Assembly: GCA_002422865.1 (NCBI GenBank)
Contig: DITN01000094.1
Span: 12,661-76,660, forward strand
Length of the DNA: 64,000 bases
Direction: 5' to 3'
Source: Bacteroidetes bacterium UBA6183
GTDB lineage: Bacteria > Bacteroidota > Bacteroidia > UKL13-3
This document shows, piece after piece, positions 1-42,536 of the stretch. The stretch's first letter is position 1. Every line of letters starts with the position of its first letter. The position numbers and the translations under genes were made by a program. Under the pieces are notes generated by a model that saw nothing but the letters and a program-made list of their open reading frames with translations, did not search any database and was not told the origin of the DNA.

Positions 1-3000
1 GTTTGAATATAACGGCTGCTGTCGTGGCCTTCAATTGTTCCGGTTATTCCTGCCAACGTTAAATTAAAGTTGTTTAGTATAACCTTACCATTGGTAATGC
101 GCATGGTATCTTGAATGGTTACGTGACCGCCTAATTCAACCGATTGCGGGTTTCTAAATTCCAGTTTATGGTATGTGTTTCCTGGTATTACTTGACGCAA
201 GTTACCCATAAATCCAATCCAACCTTGCATGTGATTAATGGTTCCATATAACGTTAAACTGCCATAAATATTTAAACGTGCATTTGGGTGATTTAATAGC
301 AAGGTTGCACCGTTTTGAATATTGAGGTTGCGCACATTTACAGCCTGTGTTAATGCTGGCATATTTAATGCGTTTGATAAAATGGTAACTTGGCTGTTTG
401 AGTCAGGAATAATCGGGCAACTCCAATTGGCCGTATTGGTCCATACATTACTAGCAGTGCCAAGCCATACTCCGGGTTGCGTAATACTAACGCGTATCTC
501 GTTCGAGAAAACTTGTCCGCATCCACCACTTACCCTTACTTTATATAATCCAGTATCATTTGGAGTGAGTGCAGGAATAGTATATCCATTACTTTGTGCA
601 CCGGTTAACGGTAAATTATTTTTAAACCACTGATAAGTAAGTGTTCCTTGTCCTGTTGCTGTAATACTTAAATTTACGGTATTGCCTGAGCAGGTAGCTA
701 TGTTTTGTGGTTGTATTGTAATTTGAGTTGTTTGGTTGCTGTTAATAGTAATAACTGAACTTGTTGCGCTCCCACAGTTATTGGTTACAGCTACTGAGTA
801 ATTACCAACCTGTTTAGCATAAACAAAAGAGGTATCACTGCTTATTACATTTCCATTTAATCTCCATAAGTATGTTGTATTTGGAACTGCTGTAATACTA
901 AGAAAAACACTGTCACCGGGGCAAATATTAGCCGAGGAGGAATTAATAGCCGGAGTGGCAGGTGGTGTTCCCGTAATACTTACATTAATCTGATTTGCAG
1001 CAGCAACTGTTCCGCAGCTGTTAGTGAGTTGTATGGAATAATTTCCCGCTTGGTTGGCCACCAATACATTTGAATTTGCACCAATATTCACCGTGTCACG
1101 TTTCCATTGGTACGTAACATCACTTTGACTTGGAATGCTTAGTTGTACGTTGGCATTGCTACATATTTGGGTTGAACCATTTGCCGTAATAGTAGGAATT
1201 GATGGAGTAGAAGTTGAATTAATCGTTACCGATGAGGTGGAAGTAATGGTATCACAAATTGCAAAGAGTTTTACTTTGTATATACCGGGTGAAGTTGCTG
1301 TGTATATTGAAGAATTGCCTCCTATAGCGGTATCATTTCTTAACCACTGATAAGTAACACCTGGTTGGGACGCTATACTAAGTTGAGTACTTCCAATACC
1401 AAAACAAAAGTTGGTACTTCCATTTACATTTATGCTTGTTGGTTGTGTAGGTAAGCGATTTATGGTAATTGCATTGGGCGAAGATGCTCCATTTGCAATT
1501 GGATTGGATGTAGTAACTCTTATTCTATAGTTGGTTCCAGGTAATGTATTTGACGGAATGGTTGCTAAGATACTTCCTGTGCTATCCGTTGAATTGAATG
1601 TTCCAATATTCACGGGATTACCAAAATTTCCGGCCGAGTCACTGAGTTGGACAGTATATACATTTCCGGCTGCAACCGGATTGTTTCTTACAAAAGGAAC
1701 TTGTAAGCTGCTTCCTTGACAAATTGGAGAATTTAACCAGCCGACATCAACTGCGCTGCCTGTAAAGCATGATAAGTTAAACGAAAATCCGGCTTGAGTA
1801 CTTGCAGAAGTATTGCTGCTTCTTAACCTGAATGTTAGTGAACTGCCTGTTGATTGTAAGGCTACCGGAGGTAAATTTCCATTGTTGTATGTACCAATTA
1901 ACGGTGCATTTATTGAAGCTCCGTCATATACATCTAAAAAATGACCTCCATTAAATTGGTTAATGTTAAACATTGTTCTTACAGCTCTAATACGTTGACC
2001 GCTGTATGAAGTGAAGGTTTGTATAAAAGTACCATAAGGATAATTGCCATTTCCTCCTGGATCAGTAAATACCCCATTACAAGTAAATCGTTCACCACTG
2101 CTCATCACATAACTTACTGCTGTGTTTGAATTGTTCACACAACTTACATAAGCTTGCCAACCTCTTGCATTAAGCGTTCCGTTGGAAGTAAATTTAAATG
2201 TTAGGTGTGTTCCACTGGAGGTTAACGTCTCCAATATCGAACCTGAAACATACACACCTAATAAAGGAGCAGTGGTATTGTTACCATCATAAATGCGTAA
2301 CGTATCGCCAGTATTAAATTGTGTAACCAAGCTATTAAAAGTAATACGTAATGGTAATCCGCTAGCTGATTGTAGGGTTAAGGTTTGATTCAGGTTGTCA
2401 GCGTAATTTGATGTGGCACCGCCATTATCATAAAATACAGCATCACATACTTGCATTACAGTGTCACTCATATTAATCACTTGAAAAATAGGTGTGGTGC
2501 AAGTAAGTGTTGCAGTAAATCCAGTTCGAGTTGAAGCATTGGTGTTGTTGGAGTTAAACTCAACAGTTAAAAATCTTCCTGTTGATTCAACAGTACTGTT
2601 AGGAGGGAAGTTCCATTCGTTGTACGAACCAATGATGGGGAAAGTGGCATCCGGTCCATCGTATACAGTAACCCAATGTCCGCCATTATTTCCGTTTACA
2701 TTTAACTCAGTAAAGTTGAGACGAATTCTATTTCCATTGTATGAAGCAAACGTTTGTCTCCAAAATCCATAACCGTAATTTCCTGTACCGCCTGGGTCAC
2801 GGATAATGGCATCGCAAGTATAACGCACCCCACTACTCAGTGCAAAGTTTTGTTGGGTAGGATTGGTGTTTACACAACTTACATTGGCTTGCCAACCTCT
2901 GCCATTGCTTGTTGCATTTGATTTGAAAACAAAGGTCAGACAAGTGCCATTAGACAACAATGGTTCAAAAGTAGAACCTTGGATATACACTGCAATTAAT

Positions 3001-7510: not shown

Positions 7511-7527
7511 TAAAAAAGTTAGAAACT

Positions 7528-7535: not shown

Positions 7536-7654
7536 AAAAGAAACATGAATTTTAGTAAGTACTTATTAATGCTATCATTAATTTTTTATGTTTGGAAATT
7601 AGTATTGGAGCATATTCTATAAACAATAAGTTTAAGACAATTTTATAGAAGCAG

Positions 7655-7726
7655 TAGTCTCGACAGGAATCGAACCTGTATCAAATGTTTAGGAAACATC
7701 TATTCTATCCATTGAACTACGAGACC
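7655..7726 (-). tRNA. tRNA-Arg (anticodon CCT), no encoded CCA
   Basis: Minus-sense GGTCTCGTAGTTCAATGGATAGAATAGATGTTTCCTAAACATTTGATACAGGTTCGATTCCTGTCGAGACTA folds as a cloverleaf. Acceptor is 7 bp with G1·U72, D stem GTTC/GAAT, anticodon stem GATGT/ACATT, loop TTCCTAA, T arm ACAGG-TTCGATT-CCTGT. Confidence 0.85.
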
Positions 7727-7728
7727 AT
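7700..7728. repeat. attL core: 29-bp direct repeat (tRNA-Arg positions 1-27 plus 2 nt upstream)
   Basis: Exact match to 32817-32845. The flanking sequences diverge immediately on both sides. Confidence 0.8.
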
Positions 7729-7792
7729 AAACCCTTGCTGGGCTTGGGTCAAATATAATAAAGTTTTATAAAAATGAGTCATTTTTCACCAT

Positions 7793-7817
7793 TTACTGCT
7801 CAATTCACTGCTCAAAA
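7793..7817. repeat. Left arm-type direct repeat TTACTGCTCAATTCACTGCTCAA, a tandem 'ACTGCTCAA' duplet, overlapping the 3' end of int
   Basis: 23/24 identity with 32704-32729. Both copies lie inside the island in the same orientation, 65 and 87 bp from the respective core repeats. Confidence 0.6.
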
Positions 7818-9299
7818 TTTTTCATAAAATTCCCTTGCTGCAAAACGACTTTCATGGTTATAATGTCTTGAATTTAAGTATATTTTGGTTGTCTTTTCTG
7901 AGGCATGGTTCAGTGTACCCTGTATTTGATGTGTAGTAAATCCTGCTTCTCTCATGTGTCTTGCTACTGTATGTCTTGGTGTATGTCCACTTAAATCTTC
8001 TATACCCAATGCTTCTCCAATCCGTTTTATTGCACCATTATGTTTGGCTCTGCACCGCTGAATTTGGTATTCATGTTTCTTATTAAAGTTTTTGTAATTG
8101 TACATCGTTCCTTTAAAGTCTTTTACTTTCAGGTAGGGGAAAATAAACCTTTCTTCTTCTTCACTTAAAATCTCAAAAAATCTGTTTACAACTGCACGCT
8201 GTAGTTTAACCCTTATCTCAGTTATTTTCTCAACTACAAGGTGTGAAAAGTCATCGGTTTTTTCTTTCAGTTGAATCTCCAAATCTATTAAGTCATCCAC
8301 TGTCCACTTTGTAATTGGTTTGTGATATCCTATTTGAACCATATTGGCAATCGTTTTTATCGGCAGCCTTAACTCTGATAAGGTTACACCGCCATTAACT
8401 TGTTTTACCAATTCTGGGTAATAATTCGTTAGCGCGTTAAGCATTTGATAATTTACATCAACTACTGTTGTGTCATCTATTTTTCTGGTAGGTATGAACA
8501 GACTACCGGACTTATACATCTTGTTTGTAAGTAATATTGCATCCTGAAATCGAATACCTGAGCAGTAGTATTGAAAGATAAATACACTTTGGGCCAATTT
8601 CTCTGATTCAGCACCCCGGTTTCCTTTTGGTTTGTAATCAATTAATTCCTGAATTTGAATAGGCTCGGGAACTTTTATCTTTTGTAGTTTTTCAACTCGA
8701 ATATCCGCGGTGAATGGTAGTGTATTGATTGGGTTTTGCGTTCCACTAATCGTGTTCCAACGTTTTACAATAGAGGCAAACAACGACATATACGATCTTA
8801 ATGCTTTATTCGATTTAACCTTACCTGTCTTTCTTGAAACCCTTATTTCTTCTCGTATTTTTTCAATTTCTGAAATATTTCTCAAAGCCTTGAAGGGTAT
8901 ATATTCCGTGCCGTAAAGTTTGATTGCTGCCTCCTTAAAATTGTTGAAGATGATTACGTATTTGTCTGCAGACCCCGTTGCAATGTTCTTATTTTTATGA
9001 TTACGTTTAATTTCCTCTTCAAATAATTTTAGTGCACATTGTTCGTCAGGTAATAATCCACCATGTTTTATTTCTTTTTCAAACGATTCAACTACATGGT
9101 CTATTATGTTGTTTATTGGCTCTGATTCTATGTAATTTTTCTTAACTCTCCCGTTTGTTTTCTCCCAGTATTTGAACGGCACTCTTATTTTGTAACTTTT
9201 CCGTTCTAGCACTTTAGCCCCCTCAAGTTTATAATGACAAAGTACACCTGTCTCCTTATCCTTTTTGTTACTGCGCAAATAAAATTTGATGTGTGCCAT
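7812..9299 (-). CDS. int: Tyrosine site-specific integrase (phage integrase family)
   Basis: 495 aa. The C-terminal catalytic region 'HTPRHTVARHM...HQIQGTLNHASEKTTKIYLN' carries the His-x-x-Arg, second His and nucleophile Tyr pattern. The gene abuts the tRNA and attL. Confidence 0.85.
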   Translation of the reverse strand: MAHIKFYLRSNKKDKETGVLCHYKLEGAKVLERKSYKIRVPFKYWEKTNGRVKKNYIESEPINNIIDHVVESFEKEIKHGGLLPDEQCALKLFEEEIKRNHKNKNIATGSADKYVIIFNNFKEAAIKLYGTEYIPFKALRNISEIEKIREEIRVSRKTGKVKSNKALRSYMSLFASIVKRWNTISGTQNPINTLPFTADIRVEKLQKIKVPEPIQIQELIDYKPKGNRGAESEKLAQSVFIFQYYCSGIRFQDAILLTNKMYKSGSLFIPTRKIDDTTVVDVNYQMLNALTNYYPELVKQVNGGVTLSELRLPIKTIANMVQIGYHKPITKWTVDDLIDLEIQLKEKTDDFSHLVVEKITEIRVKLQRAVVNRFFEILSEEEERFIFPYLKVKDFKGTMYNYKNFNKKHEYQIQRCRAKHNGAIKRIGEALGIEDLSGHTPRHTVARHMREAGFTTHQIQGTLNHASEKTTKIYLNSRHYNHESRFAAREFYEKF

Positions 9300-11340: not shown

Positions 11341-11620
11341 TTTGTTTTATACCCCTTAAAATTTGGAACAATTAGGGGCGTAGTTGTTCCATGTCCAGTA
11401 TGAAATCACTTCCACTGAACTAATTAATATTTAAAAATTAACTGACTAGGTCTATCTCATAGGTTGAGGATATTATGTTTTATTCTGTTTGGACTTCGTA
11501 TCTTTATACCCCTGTGTTTATCCATAATGTTTATGTTTGTATTTTTTGTGCGCGCAAATCCACTTCCAATACATACATAATGTATAGGTTTGTATTTTTA
11601 TGGCAAAAAAAATTACTTAG

Positions 11621-12160
11621 TTATTGTTTGTTTTTTGTCGGTTTGGATTTGAAACTAAATATCTCCTCAATTAAATTTTCATTTGATTTATCAATTGAAG
11701 AAAAGAAACCCTCTTCTCCTCTTGTTCTTAGTTCTCTTGCAATCTTTTGTTTTACCATTACCATGAATTTATCAGATTTAATATCCATTCCCTCGGTATA
11801 TGGGCAAATGTAAAATCTAAATTCTTTTTTCTTCCCACCTTGCATTGGCCAGAACATTCTTGCATTGACATAAGATCTATCGTTCATTTCACCCGCTGCT
11901 TTCACCACAACTGTATATATGGTTGGGAATATCATTTCCTTAGTTCTAGCATATTCTAAGGTTAATGCTTGAAGTTCTAAAAAAGTGGTTGCATGCTTTT
12001 TCATGAAATTAATAACATCCATTCTACTTTGTTCTAGGATGAATAACTTTTCATCGTATTCTGTAATACCGTTCTTTTCAGATACTATATAATCAGATGG
12101 TTCGATATACTCGTCTACCCACTCTTTTAGATCAAATATTTTTGGATTTTTCCGTTTCAT
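11621..12160 (-). CDS. Hypothetical protein (probable start at MKRKNPKIFD; the ORF extends to 12205)
   Basis: ORF of 194 aa with no recognisable motif. Confidence 0.45.
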   Translation of the reverse strand: MKRKNPKIFDLKEWVDEYIEPSDYIVSEKNGITEYDEKLFILEQSRMDVINFMKKHATTFLELQALTLEYARTKEMIFPTIYTVVVKAAGEMNDRSYVNARMFWPMQGGKKKEFRFYICPYTEGMDIKSDKFMVMVKQKIARELRTRGEEGFFSSIDKSNENLIEEIFSFKSKPTKNKQ

Positions 12161-14020: not shown

Positions 14021-14207
14021 AACTTTCGGTAAAAAGAGGGAAAGTTACTCTCCAACACTAACAGTAGTTTATGTTTCACTTTGTACAAAAGTGAAACATG
14101 ATGCATAAGGCGTTGATTGCATTGCTCTTATTTTTACCTCAAAAAATTCATGTTTTATTTATGTGTTTTTTCATTGCTTTTTGAAACTTTATCTGGAGCA
14201 TAGCACC

Positions 14208-14789
14208 ATGAAAAAGAAAAATACAACAACAACTTATTTGGAATGGGACAAGGTTTCATTTTTAATTAAAAAACTTGAGAAGGAAAAAGATTACAAATTT
14301 ATGCTACTTGTTTCTATTGGATGTTTCTTGGGATTGAGGATTTCAGATATTAAACAATTGAGGTGGGTCGACTTGTATCAAAATGACAACCTTTCAATAA
14401 TAGAAAAGAAAACGGGTAAGACTAGGAAGCTTATCATCAACGATGATCTGAAGAATATTATTAACATTGCACACCAGAATCTGTGTGTTAATCAGGAGGA
14501 ATTAATTTTTCAAAACAGATTTGGCAAAGGTGCAATAAGTACCCAATACATAAACAGAAAATTGAAGGAGATATTCAATAGGTACTCGTTAAGAATCCAA
14601 GCCTCATCACATACACTAAGAAAATCGTTTGGTAGAAAGGTGTATCAGAATCATAATCAATCTGAACATTCACTTGTATTACTGATGAATATCTTCAATC
14701 ATTCAAGTATTCAAATAACCAGACTCTATCTCGGTTTACGTCAAGAAGAAATAAACAATGTATATGAGGGAATTGAACTCTACAATTGA
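14208..14789 (+). CDS. Minimal tyrosine recombinase (catalytic domain only, ~194 aa; the ORF extends upstream to 14163)
   Basis: 'GLRISDIKQLRW' (Arg I), 'HTLRKSFGRKVY' (His-x-x-Arg) and 'HSSIQITRLYL' (His/Tyr). Confidence 0.65.
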   Translation: MKKKNTTTTYLEWDKVSFLIKKLEKEKDYKFMLLVSIGCFLGLRISDIKQLRWVDLYQNDNLSIIEKKTGKTRKLIINDDLKNIINIAHQNLCVNQEELIFQNRFGKGAISTQYINRKLKEIFNRYSLRIQASSHTLRKSFGRKVYQNHNQSEHSLVLLMNIFNHSSIQITRLYLGLRQEEINNVYEGIELYN

Positions 14790-14941: not shown

Positions 14942-17900
14942 TTATTCTTCTGCTGCTATCGAATATGAATCTTCGTTGGTTTCGTAAAGTTTACTACTAA
15001 AGTCGTTTGCTAGTAGTTTTGCTTGTTCTATTACTGTTTCTGTGGCCTTAGTTTCTAAATCTGGTGGGTAACCATGTTTGCGTAAAATCCTTTTTACCGC
15101 AATTCTCATTTTGGCTTGAATCGTTTCTCTCACAGTCCAATCAATGTTGGTATTTCTTTTTACTGTATCAACCAACTCACGTGCAATGTGTCGTAAAATT
15201 TCATCACCCAACACTGCAACAGACGAATCATTTACTTCAAGTGCAGTATAAAAAGCATACTCCCTAAAATCCAATCCCATGTCTTCACCTCGTCTGTCGG
15301 CCTCCTTAATATCCTTGGCCAATCGAATCATTTCTTCGATAATTTGAGCGGAAGTAATTAGGTTGTTTTGGTATGATTTCATTGATTTCTCCAACATCTC
15401 AGAGAACTTTTTTGATTGAACTAAGTTTACCTTTTGTCTGGTTTTGATTTCATCGTTTAGAAGTTTTTTTAGTAACTCCAAAGCCAGATTTCTATGGGTC
15501 ATTCCTTTCACCTCAGCTAAAAATTCATCAGAGAGAATGGAAATATCCGGTTTTTTAATTCCGGCAGCATCAAAAATATCAATCACCTCATCGGCAACAA
15601 CAGCATCAGACAAAATCTGTTTGATGGCTGTTTCTATTTCTTCATCTGTTTTTCCTTTACCACTTTGGGTTACTTTTACAATACGTGTTTTGATTGCTTG
15701 AAACAATCCAACAGTCTCTCTTATATCAGTAGTATAAGGGTGAGGTACAGAAATAGCAAAAGCCTTTGTTAATGCTGTTACAGCAGTAACGAATCTATTT
15801 TTACCGTTTTCTAATCCTAAAATATAGTTGGCTCCTTGTATTGGGAAGTATAATTTCTCTTTGGGTGTTTTACCAAAAAACGATTTGTAATCAAATCCTT
15901 TTGGTGCTGTATTATCAAGTGGTTGTTCGTTAAACATATTACACACCACTTCAAATTTACCCATCATTACTTCGGCAGCTTCATCTTGGTCGATAGTTGG
16001 TTTTCCTTTACCACCACTTTCGGTATATAATGATAACGCCTTCTTTAAATCGTTTGCTATACCAATGTAATCTACCACCAAACCACCATCCTTATCTTTA
16101 TAAACCCTATTAACCCTTGCAATGGCTTGCATCAGGTTATGACCTTTCATCGGTTTATCAATGTAAAGTGTGTGCATGGATGGTGCATCAAACCCAGTTA
16201 ACCACATATCTCTTACTATGGCAAGTTTTAATGGGTCTTTAGGGTCTTTTAATCGTTCACCTAGTGCTTTACGTTTAGCCTTGTTTCTAACGTGAGATTG
16301 AAAGTTTAATGGGTCGGATGATGAACCTGTCATTACCACTTTTACTGTACCTTCATTATCATCATTGCTGTGCCACTCCGGTTTTATCTTTATGATTTCA
16401 TTGTAGAGGTCAACACATATTCTACGACTCATGCACACAATCATTGCTTTACCATCCAACACAGCATTACGTGATTCAAAGTGTTGAACAATATCTTTTG
16501 CAATTAATTTAAGTCTGTGTTCATTACCTACAATGGCTTCCAACCTTGCCCATTTAGATTTTAAACTTTGTCTTGAATTTAATTCTTCACCCTCGGTTAA
16601 TTCTTCAAACTCTTCATCAACTCTTGGTTTTTCATCTTCCAATAAGTCAATTTTTGCTAGTCTGTTTTCATAAAATATCCTAACCGTTGCACCATCTTCT
16701 ACCGCTTGCTGTATGTCGTACACATCAATGTAATCACCAAAAACGGCTTGGGTATTCTTATCCGTATTTTCAATGGGTGTTCCGGTAAAACCTATAAAGG
16801 AAGCATTGGGTAAAGCATCCCTCATGTGTTTGGCAAAACCATCCATAAAGTCATACTGACTGCGGTGTGCTTCATCTGCAATAACAACTATGTTTCTTCT
16901 TTCTGATAATAGTTCAAATTGTCCTTTTATGTTTTTAAACTTACCATCTCCAATCTCAATTTTCTCTTGTATTTCGGGTAAGAATTTTTGGATGGTAGTA
17001 AATACAATACCACCCGAACTTACACTAAGTTTCTTTTTAAGGTCGTCTCTGTTTTCTGCTTGTACAGGTGTTTGTCTGAGTATATCCTGACTTAAAGAGA
17101 ACGTATCAAATAACTGGTCATCTAAGTCGTTTCTATCAGTTAAAACAATAAGTGTTGGGTTGTTTAATGCTAGTACCAATTTACCTGCATAAAACACCAT
17201 ACTTAAACTTTTACCACTACCCTGTGTGTGCCAAATTACACCGGCTCTTTGGTCACCATTTTCTGCTGTTGCTCGTTTGGTGGTTTCTACTGCTTTGTTT
17301 ACCGCAAAGTACTGATGGTAACGAGGTACAATTTTGGTTATCTGTTCTTTGTTTAGATGAAATAGAATGTAATGTCTAATTAGGTCGGGTAATACCCTTT
17401 TATTGAGCATACCCTTAACCATTACCTCCATTTGTGGTATGTCTTCATCTGCAACAAATTTTCCATCAATTGATTTCCACGGAACAAAAAATTGTTTAGG
17501 TGCTGTTAAAGAACCATACAGTGCATCCCAACCATCAGACACAATTAATAGTGAGTTATAGGTAAACAGAGATGAAATGGTTTGTTTATAGGTTTGTAGT
17601 TGGTTAAACGCTGAGTTAATGGTTGCGTTTTCATCAACAGCGTTTTTAAGTTCAATTACAACCAACGGAAGTCCATTAACAAACAAAATTAAATCGGGGC
17701 GTTTATTAATGTTGTTTTCAATAATTGTAAATTGATTTACTACCAAAAACTCGTTGTTATCAGGGTTGGAAAAGTCTATTAACCATACCTTGTCACCAAC
17801 AATTCTACCACCTTTTCGGTATTCAATATCTACACCCTCGGTAAGGTATTTGTGGAAGGTGTAATTGTTTTGAAATAAGTTGGGACTATCTGTACGTAAA

Positions 17901-18157
17901 ACCTTCTTCAGCGCTTCTTCCTGTGCTTCTCCGGGGACGGTTGGATTCAGTCTGGAAATGGTATCTCTCAATCTTTGTTTAAGAACCACCTCATCAAACT
18001 CACGTTCTTGTGCAACACCATCTGGTGAAATATCTGCACCGTTAACGTATGAGTATCCAAGGTCTATAAACTCTTGGATAATGATTTGTTCTATATTGTT
18101 TTCAGATAGTATGGCGGCCATGGTTATGGGTTTATATTTCTGATACCTCCAACTCAC
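14942..18157 (-). CDS. hsdR: Type I restriction enzyme R subunit (HsdR); the likely true start is the internal Met at ~18121
   Basis: 1071 aa. Helicase motifs 'HTQGSGKS' (Walker A) and '[10 protein letters not shown]' (DEAH). Confidence 0.9.
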
Positions 18158-19358
18158 CGGAAATGAGTTTTGGTAAAAGGGTGTCTCGGAGTTGTGTTAG
18201 TTGCTGGTTTTGGTTTGTGAAATTATAGATTAACGAGTCTTTCTCTTTTACCAACTCATCAAAACCGTTTGAGGTGGAAAAAGGAGGTATGATTGTTTTA
18301 ATGTTGCCTAAAGTTTCTTTATTTATTGAACCGAAGACAGTACCTTCGTTATCATAAGATTTCAATTCTCCCTGAATAGATAGCATTTTGTAATAAGTGT
18401 ATGAAAACAACTTTCTTGGATGTGAAATTGAACCAAGGCCCCGGCCAATACAACAATCATGTTCAGCCATATTAATATCCCCAACGGGAGCTCTTACACT
18501 AATTAACGTCTCGAACTTCTTAGCAACCTTTTTTGGGTCATTTGTATACATTCGTACTGAAGGATACCTAAAACCAAAGTCCGAACGTCCCTGAAAGAAT
18601 ATCATTCCATCTCCTGTTTCATTGTATGTGTCTCCTTTTGGAGATTGACCCATATTAAGGTTGAATTCATCTTTTAAAGTTCCAACTACCCAATCCTTTG
18701 GAATCTCACCCAACTCACTATCCTTCATTTCACCACCGGAAGATTTGTAGGGTTCACCATTTTCATTAGGAAACTCAAAATCAATAAACCAACGTTTAAA
18801 TAAGGTTTGTGCAAGGTTTTCTAACTCCTGATTGATTTTGTTGTTGAGTTCTATTTTATCATCAAGTGAGGAGAGGATTTCAGCAATGGCGGTTTGGGTT
18901 GGGAGGTCGGGGAGATTGAATTTTAAATTCTTTACAACCGATGCAGATATTTCAGCAAAAGTTGTTCCTGTACCATAGGACTTGATGTACTCCATTTTTG
19001 CTTTTAGCAAATAGTAAACAAAGTTATAATCAGCTTTTTCTGGATTAACTACAATACTTTTAAAACCCTGGTTAGTGCATACTTCATTAGCAGCAATAGC
19101 CAAATATCCTATAGGTGCTCTGGATGTTAATAGGATAGTATTCTTCGGAACCATCCTTGAAGAAGAATTTGATAAACCTTCTATTGTTATGTTTCTCTCA
19201 CCATTTGCAATGTGCCTATTTGTGTAATTGGTCAAGTCTTTTGGTGTTAGCCAAGGAATGTTACCACCGTAAAAATGTGGCACTTTTGTTGAAGGTGTAC
19301 CACCACCAACAACATCAGCAATTTCTTCTATTTTATATTCTTTCCAAATAGCCATCAT
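18132..19358 (-). CDS. hsdS: Type I R-M specificity subunit (HsdS), two target-recognition domains
   Basis: 408 aa. Conserved central '[16 protein letters not shown]' and C-terminal '[14 protein letters not shown]' repeat regions. Confidence 0.85.
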
Positions 19359-19831
19359 GCTTCAGTTTCGTAGTTTAAATAATAATCAACATTAAAATAT
19401 CCGTTCTCAAGTTCAACCACACCGCCTAATGCATATTTATATTGATTATCTTCAGTTTGACTTATAAAGTCTATTATTTTTTTATGGTCATTCTCTCTAT
19501 TTGCTTTATTCCAATAGCCTTTAAATTCAAGCACTAAAATATTTTCTTCATTAGAATTTCTTCTGTGTAACAAAACATCTGGAATAACACCACCGGAAAA
19601 GTTTTTTGTATTCTTAGGCTTACCCAAATTGCGATTGTACTCACAATCTAAATTGTAGCCGCTGAAAGAACTTTTTGATAACAACTCCGCGAAATAAAGC
19701 CCGAAACGAAAAACTACACTTCTTTCATTTACGGCAAACTCTATTAATTCCTGGTCTTGTTGATAAAGGCTTTGTAATGCTTCATCAACTATACCTTTCA
19801 GCTCTTTTATATGTGCAGTTGATAGTTTCAC
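19355..19831 (-). CDS. Hypothetical protein with PD-(D/E)xK (Mrr-cat/restriction-endonuclease-like) motif, embedded in the type I R-M operon
   Basis: 158 aa. 'GGVIPDVLLHRR...(19 aa)...ILVLEFKGYW', preceded by a helix carrying Glu ('AVNERSVVFRFG'). Its stop overlaps the hsdS start (ATGA). Confidence 0.5.
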   Translation of the reverse strand: MKLSTAHIKELKGIVDEALQSLYQQDQELIEFAVNERSVVFRFGLYFAELLSKSSFSGYNLDCEYNRNLGKPKNTKNFSGGVIPDVLLHRRNSNEENILVLEFKGYWNKANRENDHKKIIDFISQTEDNQYKYALGGVVELENGYFNVDYYLNYETEA

Positions 19832-19841
19832 TTATTTGCTC

Positions 19842-21080
19842 TTATTCTTCGTTTAATTCTACAAAAGACACTAGAATGTCTTCAATCTTTGGTTTTTTAT
19901 TACCGGCTTGTTTTGTTTCTCTACGTTCAATAACCACATCATAAGTTTTATCAAAATGAATAAGGTATGACATTTCTAGACGTGCTTTATCCATTTTGCC
20001 TTTTGATGTGTTGTCTTTATCTTCAATATCTTCAAACTCGTAATAACCTGTCTTAACGTTTAAGGCAATAAAGCGACCTGTAATTTTGATGTCTGTTTTT
20101 TCATCATACTCCAATTTTTCAAGCACACTTAAAATCTCATTGGCCTTGTCAAAATTTAAGTCTTTACGGTCAGACACTTTAGTGACAGCGTTTTCGTACC
20201 GAATGTAAAATTTGAGTTTTGATCCAATAATGGTTTGTAGCAAACCTTTGTAACTAGTAATTATCTTTTTATCAATAGACTTGACAAATTCTGCAAGTTG
20301 CTCATATTTTTCAGAGGCACTGATAAAGTTCATCACAAATTGGATAAACATGTCTTCATCTGACGGTACGCCTTCCATTGGAACAGCTGCCGATGCTGGC
20401 TTAAATAATGCACTAAAAGAGCCTCCTGCTTGTGCAAAATAGTTTATCTGTGTACTATGTTTTAGTGCGGCCCTGTCAATATTTGGTTTATTATTCTTGT
20501 CCTTTGGTGCTGTTCTTATTCTTTGCTTAATAAATGCTTTGCCTAAGCCTGATGTAATCTCGTGTAAGCTATTCATTGCAGGGCCGAAAATGTCAATATC
20601 TATTTCATTATACGGAACTTTGGAAGAGTTTTTGAAATAGGTTTGAAGTATGCCTGTATTGTACTTCAAAGAATAATTTGTTAAATCTAAATCATCTGAA
20701 AGAGGGTCAAAAGTGTATTTAGTGTTTCTGTCCGGCAAATAAGATTGAGGTATTTGATCTGGAAATATCATTAAAATATTTTGATAATTCAGGTCAACAT
20801 CAATATCAACTTTATAAACAAAGTTGTCGTTTGGCTCTGTTATGATGTTATAGAATGTCAGCTTTCCGTTCAAATATGCTTGAAGCCTTTCTATCGAAAC
20901 CCTTACTACCAACCAACGATTGAATGTATCATCTACATCTGCCCAAAAAAACAAATAATTTTCGTTGTTGCCCGATCGAAAATGTGACAACAAAGGACCA
21001 TCATAATAAATGAGGTCGCTTACTTTTTGCAAGTCCTTTATGGGAAGCCTTTCCAGTAATATGCCGTTAATTGCTTCCAT
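19842..21080 (-). CDS. Hypothetical protein (412 aa) embedded in the type I R-M operon; no recognisable motifs
   Basis: Long ORF. Its start overlaps the stop of the upstream ORF (21080) and there is a 10-nt gap to the downstream ORF. Confidence 0.55.
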   Translation of the reverse strand: MEAINGILLERLPIKDLQKVSDLIYYDGPLLSHFRSGNNENYLFFWADVDDTFNRWLVVRVSIERLQAYLNGKLTFYNIITEPNDNFVYKVDIDVDLNYQNILMIFPDQIPQSYLPDRNTKYTFDPLSDDLDLTNYSLKYNTGILQTYFKNSSKVPYNEIDIDIFGPAMNSLHEITSGLGKAFIKQRIRTAPKDKNNKPNIDRAALKHSTQINYFAQAGGSFSALFKPASAAVPMEGVPSDEDMFIQFVMNFISASEKYEQLAEFVKSIDKKIITSYKGLLQTIIGSKLKFYIRYENAVTKVSDRKDLNFDKANEILSVLEKLEYDEKTDIKITGRFIALNVKTGYYEFEDIEDKDNTSKGKMDKARLEMSYLIHFDKTYDVVIERRETKQAGNKKPKIEDILVSFVELNEE

Positions 21081-21520
21081 CAGATTAATTTTTCAATTGG
21101 TATGAATTTGTTGGATAGGTTACAACTTTCAAATTCAAACAAGTCAAAGTGAGTGTGTTTGCCTTCTTCTGTAATCAAACCATCATTGCCATCAATTAAG
21201 CCTGTACTTAGTGTTTCACCAACCGCTTTGTAAAATTTAGGGATGTGTTTACTGTGTTCTAAAAAAAATTGTTTTGCACTATCTGGTCTTTTAAAGCAAG
21301 AAAGGCCATACAATGAACATTTTTTTTGATCCTTCTCATTTAATACTCTTTGAGGATTATTTGCACCAGGGGGCTTGTGGTTTTTTATATGATAAGGATC
21401 TTCAAACACAAAACGAAATGTTTGCAGATTATTAGGCACTATTAATTCATCAGGAGGGCAGCAGATACCCATCTGTTGAATTTTTTCAATTTCTCGTTTA
21501 TATTTTAATTTTTCGGTCAT
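21080..21520 (-). CDS. Hypothetical protein (146 aa) embedded in the type I R-M operon
   Basis: Its start overlaps the hsdM stop (ATGA at 21517-21520). It contains an A8 run in the coding sequence (21313-21320). Confidence 0.5.
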
Positions 21521-23025
21521 ATCTCAATCCCCACTTTTTTAAGGTTCTCTTTAATACGTTTCTGTAATTCTACTGATTCAGTAAAATGTAATTTCAGGTT
21601 GGTTGTTATCCCTTGTATTTTTTCCTCAAAGGAAACTCCATCGTCTTCTACATCTTCAGTACCTACATAACGTCCGGGTGTTAAAACAAAATTATTATCT
21701 TCAATATCCTTTAGTGTGGCCGATTTACAAAAACCTTGTATGTCTTCATATCCTCCATCTTTACTTCTCCACTTGTGGTATACTTCAGCAATTTTGCTTA
21801 TGTCATCATCGGTAAAGGCTTTGTTTTTTCTACTCACCAATGTACCAAATTTACGTGCATCAATAAATAGTATTTCGTTCTTACGTTTACGGTATTTACC
21901 ATTGGTTTTATTACGTGCCAAAAACCATAAACAAGCAGGTATTTGGGTATTAAAAAACAACTGTGTAGGTAGTGCAACCATACAATCAACCACACCATCC
22001 AAAATCATGTTTTTCCTAATCTCATTTTCTCCACCAGAGTTTGAGGTCATAGAACCATTGGCCAACACAATACCTGCAACACCACTAGGACTAAGTTTAT
22101 TTAAAACCAATTGTAACCAAGCATAGTTGGCGTTTCCGGCAGGTGGTACACCATATTTCCATAAGTGTGAATCCTGTAATGACTCGGCACCATAATCAGA
22201 AATATTGAAAGGGGGATTCATGATGGCGTAATCCACCTGAATGTCTTTGTGTCTATCGTTGTGTAAGGTATCGCCTAATTCAATTTTGGCATCAATACCC
22301 CTGATGGCTAGGTTCATTTTGGCTAGCTTGTAGGTGGTTGGGTTACTCTCTTGTCCATATACCGCTATATCCCCAATTTTACCTCCGTGAGCTTCCAAAA
22401 ATTTCTCACTTTGAACGAACATACCTCCAGACCCACAGCAGCCGTCATAGATACGGCCATTGTATGGTTCTAACATTTCAACTAGGAGTTTAACAATACT
22501 GTCTGGAGTATAAAATTGTCCGCCACGTTTACCTTCAGCATCAGCAAACATTCCTAAGAAATACTCGTACACTCTTCCCAACAGGTCTTTACTATTCTGA
22601 CCGGGTTCATTGAAACCAATGTTTCCAATTAGGTCAATTAACTCACCCAAACGTTTTTTATCAAGTGCCGGTCGAGCATAATCTTTTGGTAAAACACCTT
22701 TCAAATTGGGATTGTCCTTTTCAATGGCATCCATTGCATCGTCAATATCTTTACCAATGGTAGGGAGTTTGGCTCTTTCGTATTGAAGGTATTCCCAACG
22801 TGCAATGGTGGGTACGAAGAACACATTCTCTGCTAGGTATTCGTCCTTATCTTCCGGGTTTGATAGTGGGTCACTACTTAACTTGGTATGTAGTTCTTTA
22901 AAACTATCTGATATGTATTTCAAGAAAATCAATCCAAGTACTATGTGTTTGTACTCGGCAGCATCCATGTTATTACGTAATTTATCTGCTGTAGCCCAAA
23001 GGGTCTTTTCTAAATCTTTTACCAT
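21517..23025 (-). CDS. hsdM: Type I R-M N6-adenine DNA methyltransferase subunit (HsdM)
   Basis: 502 aa. Motif I '[11 protein letters not shown]' and motif IV 'NPPFN'. Confidence 0.9.
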
Positions 23026-27505: not shown

Positions 27506-27526
27506 AGTTTGATTATTTTATACTGG

Positions 27527-28585
27527 TTATTGGAGCAATATTTTCCTTATGTCAACAATATTACCACTGTTGTCTATTAGTTGGAGGAAATATATACCAT
27601 TACCACCCCAAGCAGTAATGTCAATGTTAAACTGCTGTTGGTTGATGTTACTTTGAAATACTTGTTGTCCCAAAGAGTTCATGATCTTAATTGAGTAACC
27701 AGTCATCTTTGATAGATTACCATTGTCAATTGTGATCTTGTCTTTCGTTGGGTTTGGATAAACTTTCAATGTGTTTTCAAATGTAATTGGGTTGTATCCT
27801 GTTCTATTCACATTTATAACCAAGGTGTCAGTTACACTGATTCTATCGACACATAAATTAGCGTTATAAAGTCCTTTTATTTCTGATTCTGTTAATGCAC
27901 GGTTCCAGATTCCGATGTCATCAACTAAACCATTTAAAAATCTGTTCGGAGTTCCCAAACCATTGTCACACCCAAAATATAATGGATTGGTACTATTACA
28001 AACTGTTGAACTAATATTATTTGAGTCTTTTAACACCCCATTTACAAATAATTTAGCACCATTTGAGCTTCTTACTATTGTAAAATGTATCCACTTAAGT
28101 GAATCAATATTACCTCCAATTAAAGAGTTTTGAGGATACATTTGAAAATCACGAGTTACAACAACTAATTCCTTAGAAGAACTGATAAAAACGGCATAAT
28201 CGTCACTGCTATTGTTACAGTTTTTATTCCCATACCATTTAGTTACAACTCCACTTAATAAATTTTGATTATTTGGAAATCTGTTTACATACAACCATCC
28301 TGAAATAGAAAACTCTGTTGGGCTTGATATATTTGGGCTGTTTGATATCGTAATGTATTTGTTTTGACCTGTTTCAACAGAGGTGTTATTTCCAAATCTA
28401 TCAGTCGATAAAACTGAACCATTTAATATCCCATTATTACCATTACCACTAATGTCATTTGCGTTACCATTGAATGGCCACCATCCAACTAATCCATTTG
28501 TTGGTACGTATGATGGAACATTTTGAGAGAAAACAGTGTTGGAGAAAATTGTAATTCCAATTAGTATTGTTATAAAGTATTTCAT
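27527..28585 (-). CDS. Secreted LamG/concanavalin-like lectin-domain protein with T9SS C-terminal sorting domain
   Basis: 352 aa. Signal peptide, 'YVPTNGLVGWWPFNGNANDISGNGNNG' (LamG), and a C-terminal 'KVYPNPTKDKITIDNG...GIYFLQLID...KILLQ' (Por_Secre_tail hallmark YPNP). Confidence 0.8.
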   Translation of the reverse strand: MKYFITILIGITIFSNTVFSQNVPSYVPTNGLVGWWPFNGNANDISGNGNNGILNGSVLSTDRFGNNTSVETGQNKYITISNSPNISSPTEFSISGWLYVNRFPNNQNLLSGVVTKWYGNKNCNNSSDDYAVFISSSKELVVVTRDFQMYPQNSLIGGNIDSLKWIHFTIVRSSNGAKLFVNGVLKDSNNISSTVCNSTNPLYFGCDNGLGTPNRFLNGLVDDIGIWNRALTESEIKGLYNANLCVDRISVTDTLVINVNRTGYNPITFENTLKVYPNPTKDKITIDNGNLSKMTGYSIKIMNSLGQQVFQSNINQQQFNIDITAWGGNGIYFLQLIDNSGNIVDIRKILLQ

Positions 28586-28611
28586 ATCGATGAGTTATTA
28601 TTATTTGACTG

Positions 28612-29649
28612 TTACTGAAGAAGGATTTTTCTAAATTCAACAGTGTTTCCAGTTTTATCCATCAGATGTAAATAGTAAATACCATTACCACCCCAAGCAG
28701 TTATGTCAATATCGAATTGTTGTTGATTGATATTACCTTGAAATACCTGTTGTCCCAATGAGTTCATAATCTTAATTGAATAACCAGTCATCTTTGATAG
28801 ATTACCATTGTCAATTGTAATTTTATCTTTGGTTGGGTTTGGATAAACTTTCAACGTGTTTTCAAATGTAATTGGGTTGTATCCTGTTCGATTTACATTT
28901 ATGATAAGTGTATCAGTTACCGCAATAGATTGAAAACAAAGACTTGCGTTATAAAGTCTTTTTATTTCTGATTCTGTTAATGCACGGTTCCAGATTCCGA
29001 TGTCATCTAACTTTGAGTTAATATGATCAAACATGTTTGTTCCCGCATATCTTGCACCAAAGGTTAGATTTGCTGTATTGTTGATGTTATGGATAACCGA
29101 GGTAGTATCGGTAAAATGTAGATTACCATTGATATAAATTTTAATGATATTTCCTGTTCGAGACAGTACATAACTTTTCCAATTATTTAAAAGATTTGAA
29201 CTTGATCGATAACTATAGTAATCTGACATCAAGTTTTGATTTAGTTCTAAGGATGGTGCATTTCCCCAAGACATTGAGAAAAAGTTTCCATATCCTATAT
29301 CTTTTCTTTTGGAAATCAATGTTCCGCCATTTATAGAGTCTACGTCTTTAACCCAACAAGAAATAGTAAAGTTACTATTTTGAAAATTCCCAACTGTATT
29401 GTTAATGTATATAAAGTTATTTGTTCCATTAAAACTATATGCCGTTGCTGAATTATCAAATCTATCACCAGTCAATGTGGCCCCAATCACCGTACCATTA
29501 TTCCCATTACCACTTTCATCATTAGCATTACCATTAAATGGCCACCAACCCACCAGTCCATTTGTTGGAACGTAGGTAGGAAGATTTTGTGCTTGCGAGT
29601 AGTTTAACCAACCAAACACAAGGATTAATTTTATAATAAATTTGTTCAT
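28612..29649 (-). CDS. Secreted LamG-like protein with T9SS C-terminal domain, paralogue of 27527-28585
   Basis: 345 aa. Same N-terminal LamG motif. The 3' ~330 nt (28660-28990) is ~90-95% identical in nucleotide sequence to 27575-27905. Confidence 0.8.
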   Translation of the reverse strand: MNKFIIKLILVFGWLNYSQAQNLPTYVPTNGLVGWWPFNGNANDESGNGNNGTVIGATLTGDRFDNSATAYSFNGTNNFIYINNTVGNFQNSNFTISCWVKDVDSINGGTLISKRKDIGYGNFFSMSWGNAPSLELNQNLMSDYYSYRSSSNLLNNWKSYVLSRTGNIIKIYINGNLHFTDTTSVIHNINNTANLTFGARYAGTNMFDHINSKLDDIGIWNRALTESEIKRLYNASLCFQSIAVTDTLIINVNRTGYNPITFENTLKVYPNPTKDKITIDNGNLSKMTGYSIKIMNSLGQQVFQGNINQQQFDIDITAWGGNGIYYLHLMDKTGNTVEFRKILLQ

Positions 29650-31465: not shown

Positions 31466-32623
31466 TTATACTGCTGCGGATATTGGGAAGTAGTTTCCGG
31501 GTAACTGAAGTGTGAATTTTATTGGTGGTTTAATTTTATCGGGTACTGCACCATAATCAGGTATCAATTCCAATAACCTGTCTTTTATCGTTTCGGGATA
31601 TAAGTCTTGAATTATTATTTCTCTAGGCCTACAAGCCGAGAGTATTTTTCTATCAATTTCTGCGTTGAAAAATGGGAATGAATAACCAACAATAATTAGT
31701 CTTTCGGTATTTTTAATTACATCAAGGATGTTTGTAATCATATTATCAAATCCCGGATATTTTTCATCTTTTTCCCAAGCAAAATTGAAGTATTTGAATA
31801 CATCTGCTCCAGTTAATTTACCTTCAGGGAATAACTCTTCAAATTCAACAAGGTAATCTCCAATTTTAGCACTATCACTCCTTTGTGTATTAGGATTAAT
31901 ATTAATATCATGTGGTGTAACACCATTAGACCCTTCATTCTGAAAAACCCTATCCATAAAAGCATTTCCGTTTAATTTGAACATCGAAAACCTATTTGGA
32001 TCTATTATCTTGTTTTTAGCCTCGTTTAAACTTTTTTGATTTGGATGAATTTGATACTTGTTTTTAATAACATTAATCTTTTCGTTCGTGTAGTTTTGGA
32101 TGGTATGTTCAACCTGTAAGTCATAGTTCCATGTTATTATTTTAATATCATCACGGAGTTTAATCCCATTAACATCGTTTTCGGCAATAGAGGCGATTAG
32201 GTTGTCATATCTTTTATCTATTAAGAGTTGATATTTTGTATTTTTACCTTCAAATCCAACACACTGTTCGAAGAAAAAGTAGGAAACCAATCCTCTTTTA
32301 AGCCTTTTTAAACTTTCATGGTCACCCTTTAAAGAAAACTTTCGTGCCAATGTATCAACTGTTTGATGAATTTCAGATTCAGTATATAAGAACTCTAAAT
32401 CGTCTTTAATAACTCTCAGAGTGTTCTGGTGTTCTCTTATCCTACTATCTAATTTTTGGAGTAATGGAGAATATACGTCAGTGGTAATATAGCTTTCAAT
32501 AAATTGAGATAAATCTTTTATACGGTCTCTCAAACCATCAATAGTAGGAATTGCTTGGATACTTGCACCTGCACCGAGGTAATAAACAGTGTTTTTCATG
32601 TTGGTTATACAATTTTTGTACAA
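31466..32623 (-). CDS. Stand-alone SIR2_2-like (defence-type SIR2) domain protein; the conserved catalytic His appears to be replaced by Asn
   Basis: 385 aa. Ordered motifs 'YYLGAGAS' (GAGxS), 'IITWNYD' (TTNYD), 'FKLNGNAF' (aligning with KxHGx) and 'LIIVGYSFPFFNAEID' (GYSxxD) match the ThsA/SIR2_2 pattern. Alignment was done by eye. Confidence 0.5.
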   Translation of the reverse strand: MYKNCITNMKNTVYYLGAGASIQAIPTIDGLRDRIKDLSQFIESYITTDVYSPLLQKLDSRIREHQNTLRVIKDDLEFLYTESEIHQTVDTLARKFSLKGDHESLKRLKRGLVSYFFFEQCVGFEGKNTKYQLLIDKRYDNLIASIAENDVNGIKLRDDIKIITWNYDLQVEHTIQNYTNEKINVIKNKYQIHPNQKSLNEAKNKIIDPNRFSMFKLNGNAFMDRVFQNEGSNGVTPHDININPNTQRSDSAKIGDYLVEFEELFPEGKLTGADVFKYFNFAWEKDEKYPGFDNMITNILDVIKNTERLIIVGYSFPFFNAEIDRKILSACRPREIIIQDLYPETIKDRLLELIPDYGAVPDKIKPPIKFTLQLPGNYFPISAAV

Positions 32624-32703: not shown

Positions 32704-32729
32704 TTACTGCTCAAATCACTGCTCAATTT
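32704..32729. repeat. Right arm-type direct repeat TTACTGCTCAAATCACTGCTCAA
   Basis: See left copy. It lies between the SIR2-like gene start and attR. Confidence 0.6.
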
Positions 32730-32816
32730 GTGTTTTTTAACACGACTTTTTCCTTGAAGATTATTGATGGTACTGGGTTTCGGGGGATTGGTAGTGGTTG
32801 GTTCTTAAAAGTGAAC

Positions 32817-32845
32817 TATTCTATCCATTGAACTACGAGACCATT
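32817..32845. repeat. attR core: 29-bp direct repeat, a partial copy of the tRNA-Arg 5' end
   Basis: Exact match to 7700-7728. No remainder of the tRNA follows it. Confidence 0.8.
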
Positions 32846-33025
32846 TTCATACAACTCACAATTTGAGTTCATGGGCGAAAATAGTAAACGTAGCTGGTTA
32901 ATAAAATCGTTTTTTCATCTTTTATCATAAATCTAACACAACACAACATAAATGGTTAACTACCCGTGCAATGTACATATATGGTATAAACTGAGTAAAT
33001 ACCTACTTTTGTAAAAATTTAAACC

Positions 33026-38850: not shown

Positions 38851-38857
38851 TTGTTTG

Positions 38858-38930
38858 TGGTGTGGGAGGGAATCGAACCCCCGACACAAAGATTTTCAGT
38901 CTTTTGCTCTACCGACTGAGCTACCGCACC
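38858..38930 (-). tRNA. tRNA-Phe (anticodon GAA), no encoded CCA
   Basis: Minus-sense GGTGCGGTAGCTCAGTCGGTAGAGCAAAAGACTGAAAATCTTTGTGTCGGGGGTTCGATTCCCTCCCACACCA. D arm GCTC/GAGC, anticodon stem AAAGA/TCTTT, loop CTGAAAA. There is one C·A mismatch in the acceptor stem. Confidence 0.8.
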
Positions 38931-40420: not shown

Positions 40421-41488
40421 ATGCCAGTTACGAAAGTTGATGTAAGTACGTTTTTAGAACTAGCCAAAAGCAATCCTGTTTTTGATGTACGCAGTCCGCA
40501 GGAATATGCTTATGCGCATATACCCGGTTCTCTATCATTGCCTATTTTTAATGATGAACAGCGTGCCGAAATTGGAACTACCTACAAACAAATTAGCAGG
40601 CAAGATGCTATAAAAATTGGCTTGAAATATTTTGGTCCACAACTAAATACTTATGTAAGCATAGTTGAAGAGACGCTTAAAAAATATACAAGTAACAACA
40701 ACCAAAAAGTATTGGTGCATTGCTGGCGTGGCGGTATGCGTAGTGGCGCTATGGCTTGGTTGCTTGGTTTTTATGGGTTTGATGTGGTGTTGTTAGAGGG
40801 TGGTTACAAAGCCTACCGTAATGATGTACTACATCGGTTGGGCTTACCCTACCAATTTAATGTATTAGGCGGATATACCGGAAGCGGTAAAACGGAAGTT
40901 TTGTTGGAACTTAAAAAGCAGCATCATGCCGTTATCGATTTAGAAGGTATTGCTTGTCATAAGGGTTCTTCGTTTGGTGCACTGGGCATGAAAGAACAGC
41001 CATCACAAGAGCAGTTCGAAAATAATTTGGCCCAGGAATTAACAGGGTATTTTCACATAGATGAAGCTCAAAATTTTCATCAACCCAAACCTATTTGGAT
41101 TGAAAATGAAAGCCAACGTATTGGTTTAATCAACCTGCCTAAACCATTTTATGAAACCATTTTAGTAGGTAAAGTATTTGTGTTAAATATTCCTTTTGAT
41201 GAACGTTTAAAGTTTATTACCGAGTACTACGGAAAATTTGATAAGGATAAGTTGGTTACCGGCATTATGCGCATACAAAAACGTCTGGGTGGACTGGATA
41301 CCAAAAATGCCATCAACTTTTTGTTAGAAGGTGATGTTACATCATGCTTTAAAATTTTGTTGAGTTATTACGATAAACAATACCAGCAATCTGCTGAAAA
41401 AAATTCAAGGCAAGCAATAATCATTCAATCTGTTGTGGTTCATGCAAAAGCCAATGCTTCATTACTTTTAAACCCCGATGTAAAATAA
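40421..41488 (+). CDS. mnmH: tRNA 2-selenouridine synthase (SelU/MnmH): rhodanese domain + P-loop
   Basis: 355 aa. Rhodanese active site 'HCWRGGMRS' and P-loop 'GGYTGSGKT'. Confidence 0.8.
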   Translation: MPVTKVDVSTFLELAKSNPVFDVRSPQEYAYAHIPGSLSLPIFNDEQRAEIGTTYKQISRQDAIKIGLKYFGPQLNTYVSIVEETLKKYTSNNNQKVLVHCWRGGMRSGAMAWLLGFYGFDVVLLEGGYKAYRNDVLHRLGLPYQFNVLGGYTGSGKTEVLLELKKQHHAVIDLEGIACHKGSSFGALGMKEQPSQEQFENNLAQELTGYFHIDEAQNFHQPKPIWIENESQRIGLINLPKPFYETILVGKVFVLNIPFDERLKFITEYYGKFDKDKLVTGIMRIQKRLGGLDTKNAINFLLEGDVTSCFKILLSYYDKQYQQSAEKNSRQAIIIQSVVVHAKANASLLLNPDVK

Positions 41489-41489
41489 G

Positions 41490-42536
41490 ATGACACCTAT
41501 TAAATTAACTCAATTTGCCAAGGGTGCAGGTTGTGGTTGTAAAATTGCCCCCTCGGTTTTAGAAAGTATTTTATCATCAAGCCGTATCTCTTCACTAGTC
41601 AACACCAATTTAATGGTAGGTAACAGCAGTAACGATGATGCTGCTGTTTACAATTTAGGAAATGGTTCGGCATTAATTGTTACAGCCGATTTTTTTATGC
41701 CTATTGTGGATGATGCATTTACGTTTGGACAGGTAGCTGCTGCAAATGCATTAAGTGATGTATATGCAATGGGCGGTAAACCAATTACTGCAATTGCAAT
41801 ATTGGGTTGGCCTATTGATAAAATTCCGGCAGAAGTTGCTGCTCAAGTAATGGATGGAGCAAGATCAATTTGCGAAAAGGCTGGCATTGTTATTTCTGGT
41901 GGACATACCATTGATGCACCCGAGCCATTTTTTGGTTTATCTGTAAACGGTTTGGCTCAAATTCAACACATCAAACAAAACAATACTGCTCAAGAAGGGG
42001 ATGTAATTTTATTAACTAAACCCATTGGTGTTGGGATATTGGCTACTGCACAAAAGCGTGGCTTAATAACAGATGAGCACCAAGATATTTTAGAGAAGCA
42101 ACTTGCCCGACTAAATGATTTTGGTGAGCTATTGGGTAAAGAAAAAGCAGTGCATGCCATGACTGATGTTACCGGATTTGGCTTGCTTGGTCATTTGGTT
42201 GAAATGAGCGAGGGAAGTGGTTTAACCGCTGAAATCACGTACGCATCAATACCCAAAATACAAGCGGCAATTGATTACGCAAAACAAGGAATTTTACCTG
42301 ATGCGACTTATAGAAACTGGAATGCTTATGGTGATAAAATAAACTTATTACCAAGTGTTGATGCCACCGAAGCTTTTATGCTTTTACCCGATCCGCAAAC
42401 CAACGGAGGTTTATTAATTGCGGTAGATTCGAGTGCAGTTGATGATATCATTAAACTGGCCGAAGCAAATGGTGTGCAAGCTTCACAAATTGGTTTATTT
42501 ACTACCAAGGCTGATAAAACGATTAACGTAATTTAG
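41490..42536 (+). CDS. selD: Selenide, water dikinase (selenophosphate synthetase), Cys-type
   Basis: 348 aa. N-terminal 'GAGCGCKIAP' (Cys at the Sec/Cys position) and an AIR-synthase-like fold. Adjacent to selU. Confidence 0.85.
   Translation: MTPIKLTQFAKGAGCGCKIAPSVLESILSSSRISSLVNTNLMVGNSSNDDAAVYNLGNGSALIVTADFFMPIVDDAFTFGQVAAANALSDVYAMGGKPITAIAILGWPIDKIPAEVAAQVMDGARSICEKAGIVISGGHTIDAPEPFFGLSVNGLAQIQHIKQNNTAQEGDVILLTKPIGVGILATAQKRGLITDEHQDILEKQLARLNDFGELLGKEKAVHAMTDVTGFGLLGHLVEMSEGSGLTAEITYASIPKIQAAIDYAKQGILPDATYRNWNAYGDKINLLPSVDATEAFMLLPDPQTNGGLLIAVDSSAVDDIIKLAEANGVQASQIGLFTTKADKTINVI

Follow-up and report, generated by a model that had tools for sequence, protein, structure and literature searches.

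A 25.1-kb island of a Bacteroidetes bacterium that very probably entered a tRNA-Arg(CCU) gene on its 5' side and left a hybrid gene

Integration of mobile elements on the 5' side of tRNA genes is already known in principle and is documented in bacteria and archaea. Elements that enter the 5' ends of protein-coding genes restore the 5' end of the gene and supply new upstream signals; SXT reportedly integrates at the 5' end of prfC. A reverse-orientation tRNA-integrating element from a phylum other than Bacteroidota is said to have been described by Zhao & Williams 2002 (J Bacteriol 184:859). The preliminary description of the locus studied here called 5' integration unusual. This agrees with PMC6563490, where use of the 5'-distal part of a tRNA gene for recombination is termed "considerably less frequent" than use of the 3' part; that paper cites bacterial and archaeal precedents and names Zhao & Williams 2002 for 5'-distal recombination. 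[quoted passage not shown] According to the respective reports, plasmid pTN3 rebuilds a tRNA-Leu "separated from its original promoter" (PMC5495485) and dusA islands enter the 5' end of their target gene (PMC4482086). The 10K island of Riemerella anatipestifer, as described in PMC6764341, lies downstream of a tRNA-Arg gene, with a repeat made of the 3' end and downstream DNA. [quoted passage not shown]

At the locus studied here, a 25.1-kb island very probably entered a tRNA-Arg(CCU) gene by tyrosine-integrase recombination on the 5' side, leaving a hybrid gene. The arrangement is the mirror image of the usual 3'-end integration. The window, meaning the whole stretch of 64,000 nt that was analysed, contains two tRNA genes called by ARAGORN; the one at 7654-7726, encoded on the minus strand, is tRNA-Arg(cct). 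The Rfam tRNA model run with Infernal matches 7655-7726 on that strand with 66.9 bits, against a gathering score of 29. The two programs agree on the minus-strand placement with the 5' end toward the island, as had been claimed earlier; a plus-strand call, which would have overturned that claim, was returned by neither. A 29-mer, CTATTCTATCCATTGAACTACGAGACCAT, occurs in two exact copies on the same strand, at 7700-7728 and 32816-32844, with 0 mismatches; by comparison with 100 shuffles, none was expected by chance. Read on the minus strand it is AT followed by GGTCTCGTAGTTCAATGGATAGAATAG. Positions 7726 down to 7700 correspond to tRNA positions 1-27, preceded by two upstream bases at 7728-7727, such that the core spans tRNA positions -2 to 27. 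The preliminary description had given the repeat exactly these limits, and they are right to the base. Within the gene, the left copy (minus strand) extends from the 5' acceptor strand across the D arm and position 26 to the first base of the anticodon stem. On each side of the repeat only 16 of 60 flanking positions match, which is the chance level, and identity ends at both edges. The right copy, also on the minus strand, is an orphaned 5' tRNA fragment (-2 to 27) with its native upstream DNA still attached; the DNA around it scores 18.8 bits with the Rfam model, and because this is below the gathering score it is a fragment and not a second tRNA gene. The intact tRNA-Arg(CCU) therefore combines positions 28-73 of host DNA with positions 1-27 that lie inside the common core. 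A search of the window for a 3' tRNA fragment found none.

The island between the two copies (7729-32815, 25,087 bp) has a G+C content of 34.2%, compared with 38.0% and 37.1% in the flanks. Features of tRNA-gene islands found here are a tyrosine recombinase at the edge, tRNA-derived repeats at the ends and an empty site in a relative. The integrase (495 aa, 7812-9299, minus strand) is transcribed toward the tRNA gene and ends 85 nt upstream of it. PF00589 matches its C-terminal part alone (residues 361-478, E 1.2e-12); no Pfam domain was found in the first 360 aa, and NCBIfam gave weak Xer-type matches at most. The protein has R250, K273, H439, R442, H465 and Y474, the catalytic R-K-H-R-H-Y set. 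All are invariant in a 17-homolog alignment except R442, which is R in 15 sequences and K in two. The integrase family is small. A word search returned 18 homologs, and an integrase profile found 36 proteins at E <= 1e-30 among 1.84 billion representative proteins, only 3 loci in the genome collection and no match in viral contigs.

The 11-mer TTGAGCAGTRA has 4 copies in the 64 kb, compared with 0.03 expected, and they occur only at the island ends. The copies form two tandem pairs, one just inside each end and all oriented as int: TTGAGCAGTGA/TTGAGCAGTAA at 7793-7815 (minus strand), which begins at the int stop codon, and a second pair at 32704-32726 in the same orientation. Repeats related to this 11-mer come after every homologous int gene examined, and the pairs look like arm-type integrase sites.

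The cargo identified with Pfam includes an N6/N4 methyltransferase, a type I restriction-modification locus with a second small recombinase, UmuD/UmuC, SRAP, an HTH regulator and two secreted lectin-like proteins with T9SS sorting domains. The small recombinase, a 208-aa tyrosine recombinase (14163-14789, plus strand), adjoins hsdR, hsdS and hsdM (14942-23025, minus strand), and an inverted repeat whose arms, at 18014-18041 and 18939-18966, are 82% complementary extends across hsdS and the end of hsdR. The locus could be a phase-variable specificity system. The genes of the two lectin-like proteins (Laminin_G_3; 27512-29649, minus strand) are tandem paralogs whose DNA is 82-93% identical over several stretches. 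The right flank holds genes unrelated to the island, namely a tRNA-Phe(GAA) gene (38857-38930, minus strand) and, at 40421-42536 on the plus strand, Rhodanese and AAA_SelU domains typical of tRNA 2-selenouridine synthase together with AIRS and AIRS_C domains typical of selenophosphate synthetase.

The comparative sequences, all of them metagenome contigs, include the site without the island. Exact-pattern scans of genome and metagenome contigs for the predicted attB gave no match; the true empty site carries SNPs in the flank (TTTTATAC versus TTTCATAC). The empty site was instead reached through homologs of the flanking ABC-2 permease. A 62-kb scaffold, L047, encodes a permease 98% identical to that of the window. 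Its tRNA-Arg(CCU) is identical to the one in the window and is fused to TTTTATACAACTCACAAATTGAG..., which is the right flank from 32845 with a few SNPs. An independent contig, L048, begins with GGAAACAT, the core and the same native flank, and L004 begins with the core framed by a t on each side, a 31-mer that exists only at the empty site. It follows that the island was inserted between the body of the tRNA and the upstream DNA native to it. In L047, and independently in L048, only 29 bp match the island; identity through the whole tRNA, which would have contradicted the preliminary description, was not seen, and the structural interpretation given there is supported.

The native upstream region of the tRNA (32845-33025, minus strand) is contiguous with the intact gene in L047 and L048, apart from a few SNPs. 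In the window it now lies 25 kb from the tRNA gene and is directed into the island toward an ORF at 31466-32623. No terminator-like site was predicted between this region and the ORF, and one may speculate that the region drives the ORF. At 32858-32864 (plus strand) the window has CAATTTG where both empty sites have CAAATTG (L047:4834-4840), a SNP that alters a TTTG-containing motif 17 nt upstream of the tRNA on the tRNA strand. [quoted passage not shown] The window has a gene for a secreted protein of >2500 aa there, which starts at 7511 (minus strand) and runs off the window; in L047 a Band_7 gene and a terminator hairpin occupy this side. The 3' side of tRNA-Arg may be a second variable site.

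The joined form of the ends was seen in a sister element. Contig L052 (25.9 kb) carries similar cargo and an integrase in a cluster 75% identical to that of the window. Its order is int, arm repeats, TATCTTTG, ...gggtttATGGTCTCGTAGTTCAATGGATAGAATAG, TTCAATCTTAAGATACC..., arm repeats and far-end genes. The segment between TATCTTTG and the far-end sequence is tRNA(-2..27), and no tRNA was called in the contig. L052 is colinear with the attP rebuilt from the window junctions, and its second pair of arm repeats is homologous to the one at the far island end; the two blastn segments overlap exactly on the 29-bp core. Because the path in a k=31 assembly needs junction-spanning reads, an excised circle or a tandem copy existed in the L052 sample. 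A joined attP was seen in this sister and in L016-L019, in each case as either circles or tandem copies. No viral contig matched when the core was searched together with the near-end junction. All four att states have thus been shown: attL and attR in the window, attB in L047/L048 and attP in sister L052.

These states make the following course of integration very probable. The attP would carry an exact copy of tRNA positions -2 to 27, with element DNA before it. Recombination would then produce a hybrid gene with upstream DNA from the island, positions 1-27 from the common core and positions 28-73 from the host, and would leave the host upstream region with a dead 27-nt fragment at the far junction. 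Strand exchange probably occurs at about positions 21-27, in the 3' strand of the D stem, and the tRNA would be transcribed from an island promoter (a TAnnTTTG box at 7750-7757), possibly with help from read-through from int.

The promoter of the rebuilt tRNA deserves separate consideration. The 5' flank of the gene (7729-7811, minus strand), part of an 85-nt spacer from the int stop codon to tRNA +1, is island DNA, as the preliminary description had held: it is absent from the empty site in L047 and L048 and present in the L052 attP. Between the window and L005 the spacer shows 90% identity, whereas their integrases share only 75%. A pattern search located the candidate promoter box TATATTTG at 7750-7757 (minus strand), 23 nt upstream of tRNA +1, and the same position is occupied by TATCTTTG in L005, L052 and L053. 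Both match TAnnTTTG, the consensus of the -7 promoter box of Bacteroidetes. Upstream of the tRNA a -33 element was not clearly recognisable, and a sigma-70-type promoter scan, a model not applicable to Bacteroidota, stayed at background level. An island-supplied tRNA promoter at 7750-7757 is plausible but unproven. The earlier claim that the island must supply a promoter thus holds for the origin of the upstream DNA; the promoter itself is suggested by the conserved box, and read-through is a possible alternative source of transcription.

Under that alternative the structure is the same, with no dedicated island promoter, and the tRNA is made by read-through from the integrase gene. The int and tRNA genes are co-directional and 85 nt apart, no terminator-like site was found in the spacer between them, and the promoter search yielded a -7-type box alone. 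However, sister elements have kept the TAnnTTTG box together with the sequence around it, and integrase genes are usually weakly expressed. Transcription by read-through alone is a real possibility, though a fairly unlikely one.

More distant relatives of the integrase narrow the position of the crossover. In L006/L007, L011, L012 and L014 (36-39% identity) and in L009 (32%), int is followed by arm repeats, about 70 nt and ...AAGAATAG, after which a tRNA-Arg(CCU) is represented by its 3' part alone, beginning near position 26. The 5' part is absent at this junction in each of these relatives, and ARAGORN called no tRNA there. In L006, a contig of Flavobacteriales bacterium UBA952 and the only case in which both junctions of such a gene-splitting element were seen, the missing positions 1-25 sit 11 kb away at the other element end (features at 601-626 and 11596-11650). 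The host tRNA is split at about 25/26, and the two halves joined at GAAT give a perfect 73-nt tRNA-Arg(CCU). A joined attP of this type is found in contigs L016-L019, where the junction reads ...AAGAAT(G/A)TCGGGTTCTT..., and the far junction of L006 aligns with it from AGAAT onward. The switch between element and tRNA lies at AGAAT(A) in the attP of L016-L019 and in the attL/attR of L006, L011, L012 and L014. A split-type element and the tRNA therefore share only about AGAAT(A), positions 21-26 in the D stem 3' strand. Because distant family members share no more than this with the tRNA, we infer that the crossover in the window lies near positions 21-27, the last ~7 nt of the repeat, if the family works uniformly. 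The other ~22 nt of the 29-bp repeat would then be repair sequence. The crossover segment proposed in the preliminary description, the 5' acceptor and D arm, is correct as to the 5' part of the gene, and these relatives suggest narrowing it to the last ~7 nt, in the D stem 3' strand. A search for inverted core-type sites at the crossover found AAGAA-N7-TTCTT in the split-type attP and no clear equivalent in the window-type attP.

The two types of element appear to compensate for the cut tRNA in different ways. In window-type elements (the window, L005/L053 and L052) the gene is rebuilt from the 5' side. In split-type elements the host gene is left broken, and a complete tRNA-Arg(CCU) of different sequence lies just inside the far end. 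This substitute, at 784-858 in L006 (62.7 bits), is followed by an intrinsic terminator and is also present in L017, L018 and L019. Its D stem is GTTT/AAAT, without the AGAAT core, and on this basis the substitute would itself be no integration target. Once the element has integrated, this gene and the host 5' fragment point the same way, with the gene ~150 nt downstream, and it could thus be transcribed from the host promoter. Relatives at 30% identity (L024 and L029) have the classical orientation and adjoin the 3' end of a tRNA-Arg(CCU) gene that is intact; a direct repeat was looked for in L029 without success. Arm repeats of the L024/L029 type occur downstream of the split tRNA 3' end in L012:11660-11760 and L014:11660-11760, where one tRNA gene seems, from these repeats, to be occupied on both sides. 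In L028, int lies upstream of a complete tRNA, ~250 nt away. There is a somewhat better than even chance that the family uses a fourth tRNA sublocation, the junction of the D stem 3' strand and the anticodon stem with ~5-7 bp shared, and has solved the loss of the promoter in two ways. If so, window-type elements bring the first 27 nt and a promoter, and split-type elements bring a complete substitute tRNA-Arg(CCU).

A less favored alternative, which we consider improbable, accepts the same structure and holds that the rebuilt tRNA is poorly expressed or silent and is tolerated by the host. tRNA-Arg(UCU) can read AGG, and tRNA-Arg(CCU) is dispensable in E. coli. The outright splitting of the same tRNA by integrase relatives (L006, L009, L011, L012 and L014) suggests that loss of the host copy is survivable. 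However, the split-type elements seen in full bring a substitute tRNA-Arg(CCU), and the 29 nt are identical among elements whose integrases differ by 25%. Together, the substitute tRNAs and the identical 29 nt point to selection for keeping tRNA function.

It is far less probable that the second 29-mer represents an unrelated duplication of part of the tRNA and that the intervening DNA is no discrete mobile element. A 5' fragment without an island does occur: in L049:1841-2000, and likewise in L050 and L051, a second copy of the 5' ~28 nt lies 56 nt upstream of an intact tRNA-Arg(CCU), and in L049 and L050 this is seen with no island between the two. In L049, where the permease of the relative is 87% identical, the 5' copy is followed by a hairpin and a partial T arm. 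Such a duplicate is a pseudo-tRNA or else a scar that an earlier event on the 5' side left behind. For the window, this reading is contradicted by the integrase, the arm repeats, the empty site and the attP that was observed, which agree with the repeat boundaries to the base. An ordinary 3'-end integration misread through a wrong strand call has nothing in its favor and is refuted: ARAGORN and Infernal agree on the minus strand, and the repeated part of the gene is positions 1-27. It retains practically no credence.

Integration on the 5' side by an element of this family has practical consequences. Island finders (Islander-style, Phage_Finder) seek 3' tRNA fragments downstream, and elements such as this one will be systematically missed or misbounded. 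The two types of element offer a natural comparison of two ways in which mobile elements compensate for separating a tRNA gene from its promoter. For Bacteroidota, in which few site-specific integration tools have been characterised, the family also provides a candidate integrase with a short core and tRNA specificity. In a limited literature search, no description was found of this Bacteroidota integrase family, of a short core in the D stem 3' strand, or of gene-splitting sisters with a substitute tRNA.

5'-side tRNA-integrating elements are a functional class and not a sequence family. The island belongs with them: what it shares with the tRNA is the 5' part, and it is located upstream of the intact gene. 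A parallel in position is Klebsiella arg2, where islands also lie upstream of a tRNA-Arg gene and occupancy of both sides recalls L012 and L014. Unlike those islands of Gammaproteobacteria with P4-like integrase domains, the present island is from Bacteroidota, its integrase, from a small and very divergent family, matches PF00589 over the C-terminal ~120 aa only, and its core maps to the D stem 3' strand. Nor does the core coincide with a Williams 2002 sublocation: in the window it ends at position 27, and in the relatives it is AGAAT(A), positions 21-26. Thermococcus pTN3 and TKV4, with an SSV-type integrase, differ in being archaeal, in having attP inside int so that int is split on integration, and in targeting tRNA-Leu. 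Elements of the dusA and SXT type have protein-coding targets and unrelated integrase families. Within Bacteroidota, the Riemerella 10K island shares the order Flavobacteriales, a tyrosine integrase, a tRNA-Arg target and flanking direct repeats with the window island, whose repeat, unlike that of 10K, is the 5' part of the tRNA and which lies upstream of the gene. Unlike integrases of the Bacteroides CTnDOT/NBU type, the window integrase has no recognisable N-terminal arm-binding or SAM-like Pfam domains. Finally, like the element of Zhao & Williams, as far as the citing text describes it, the island recombines with the 5'-distal part of a tRNA gene.
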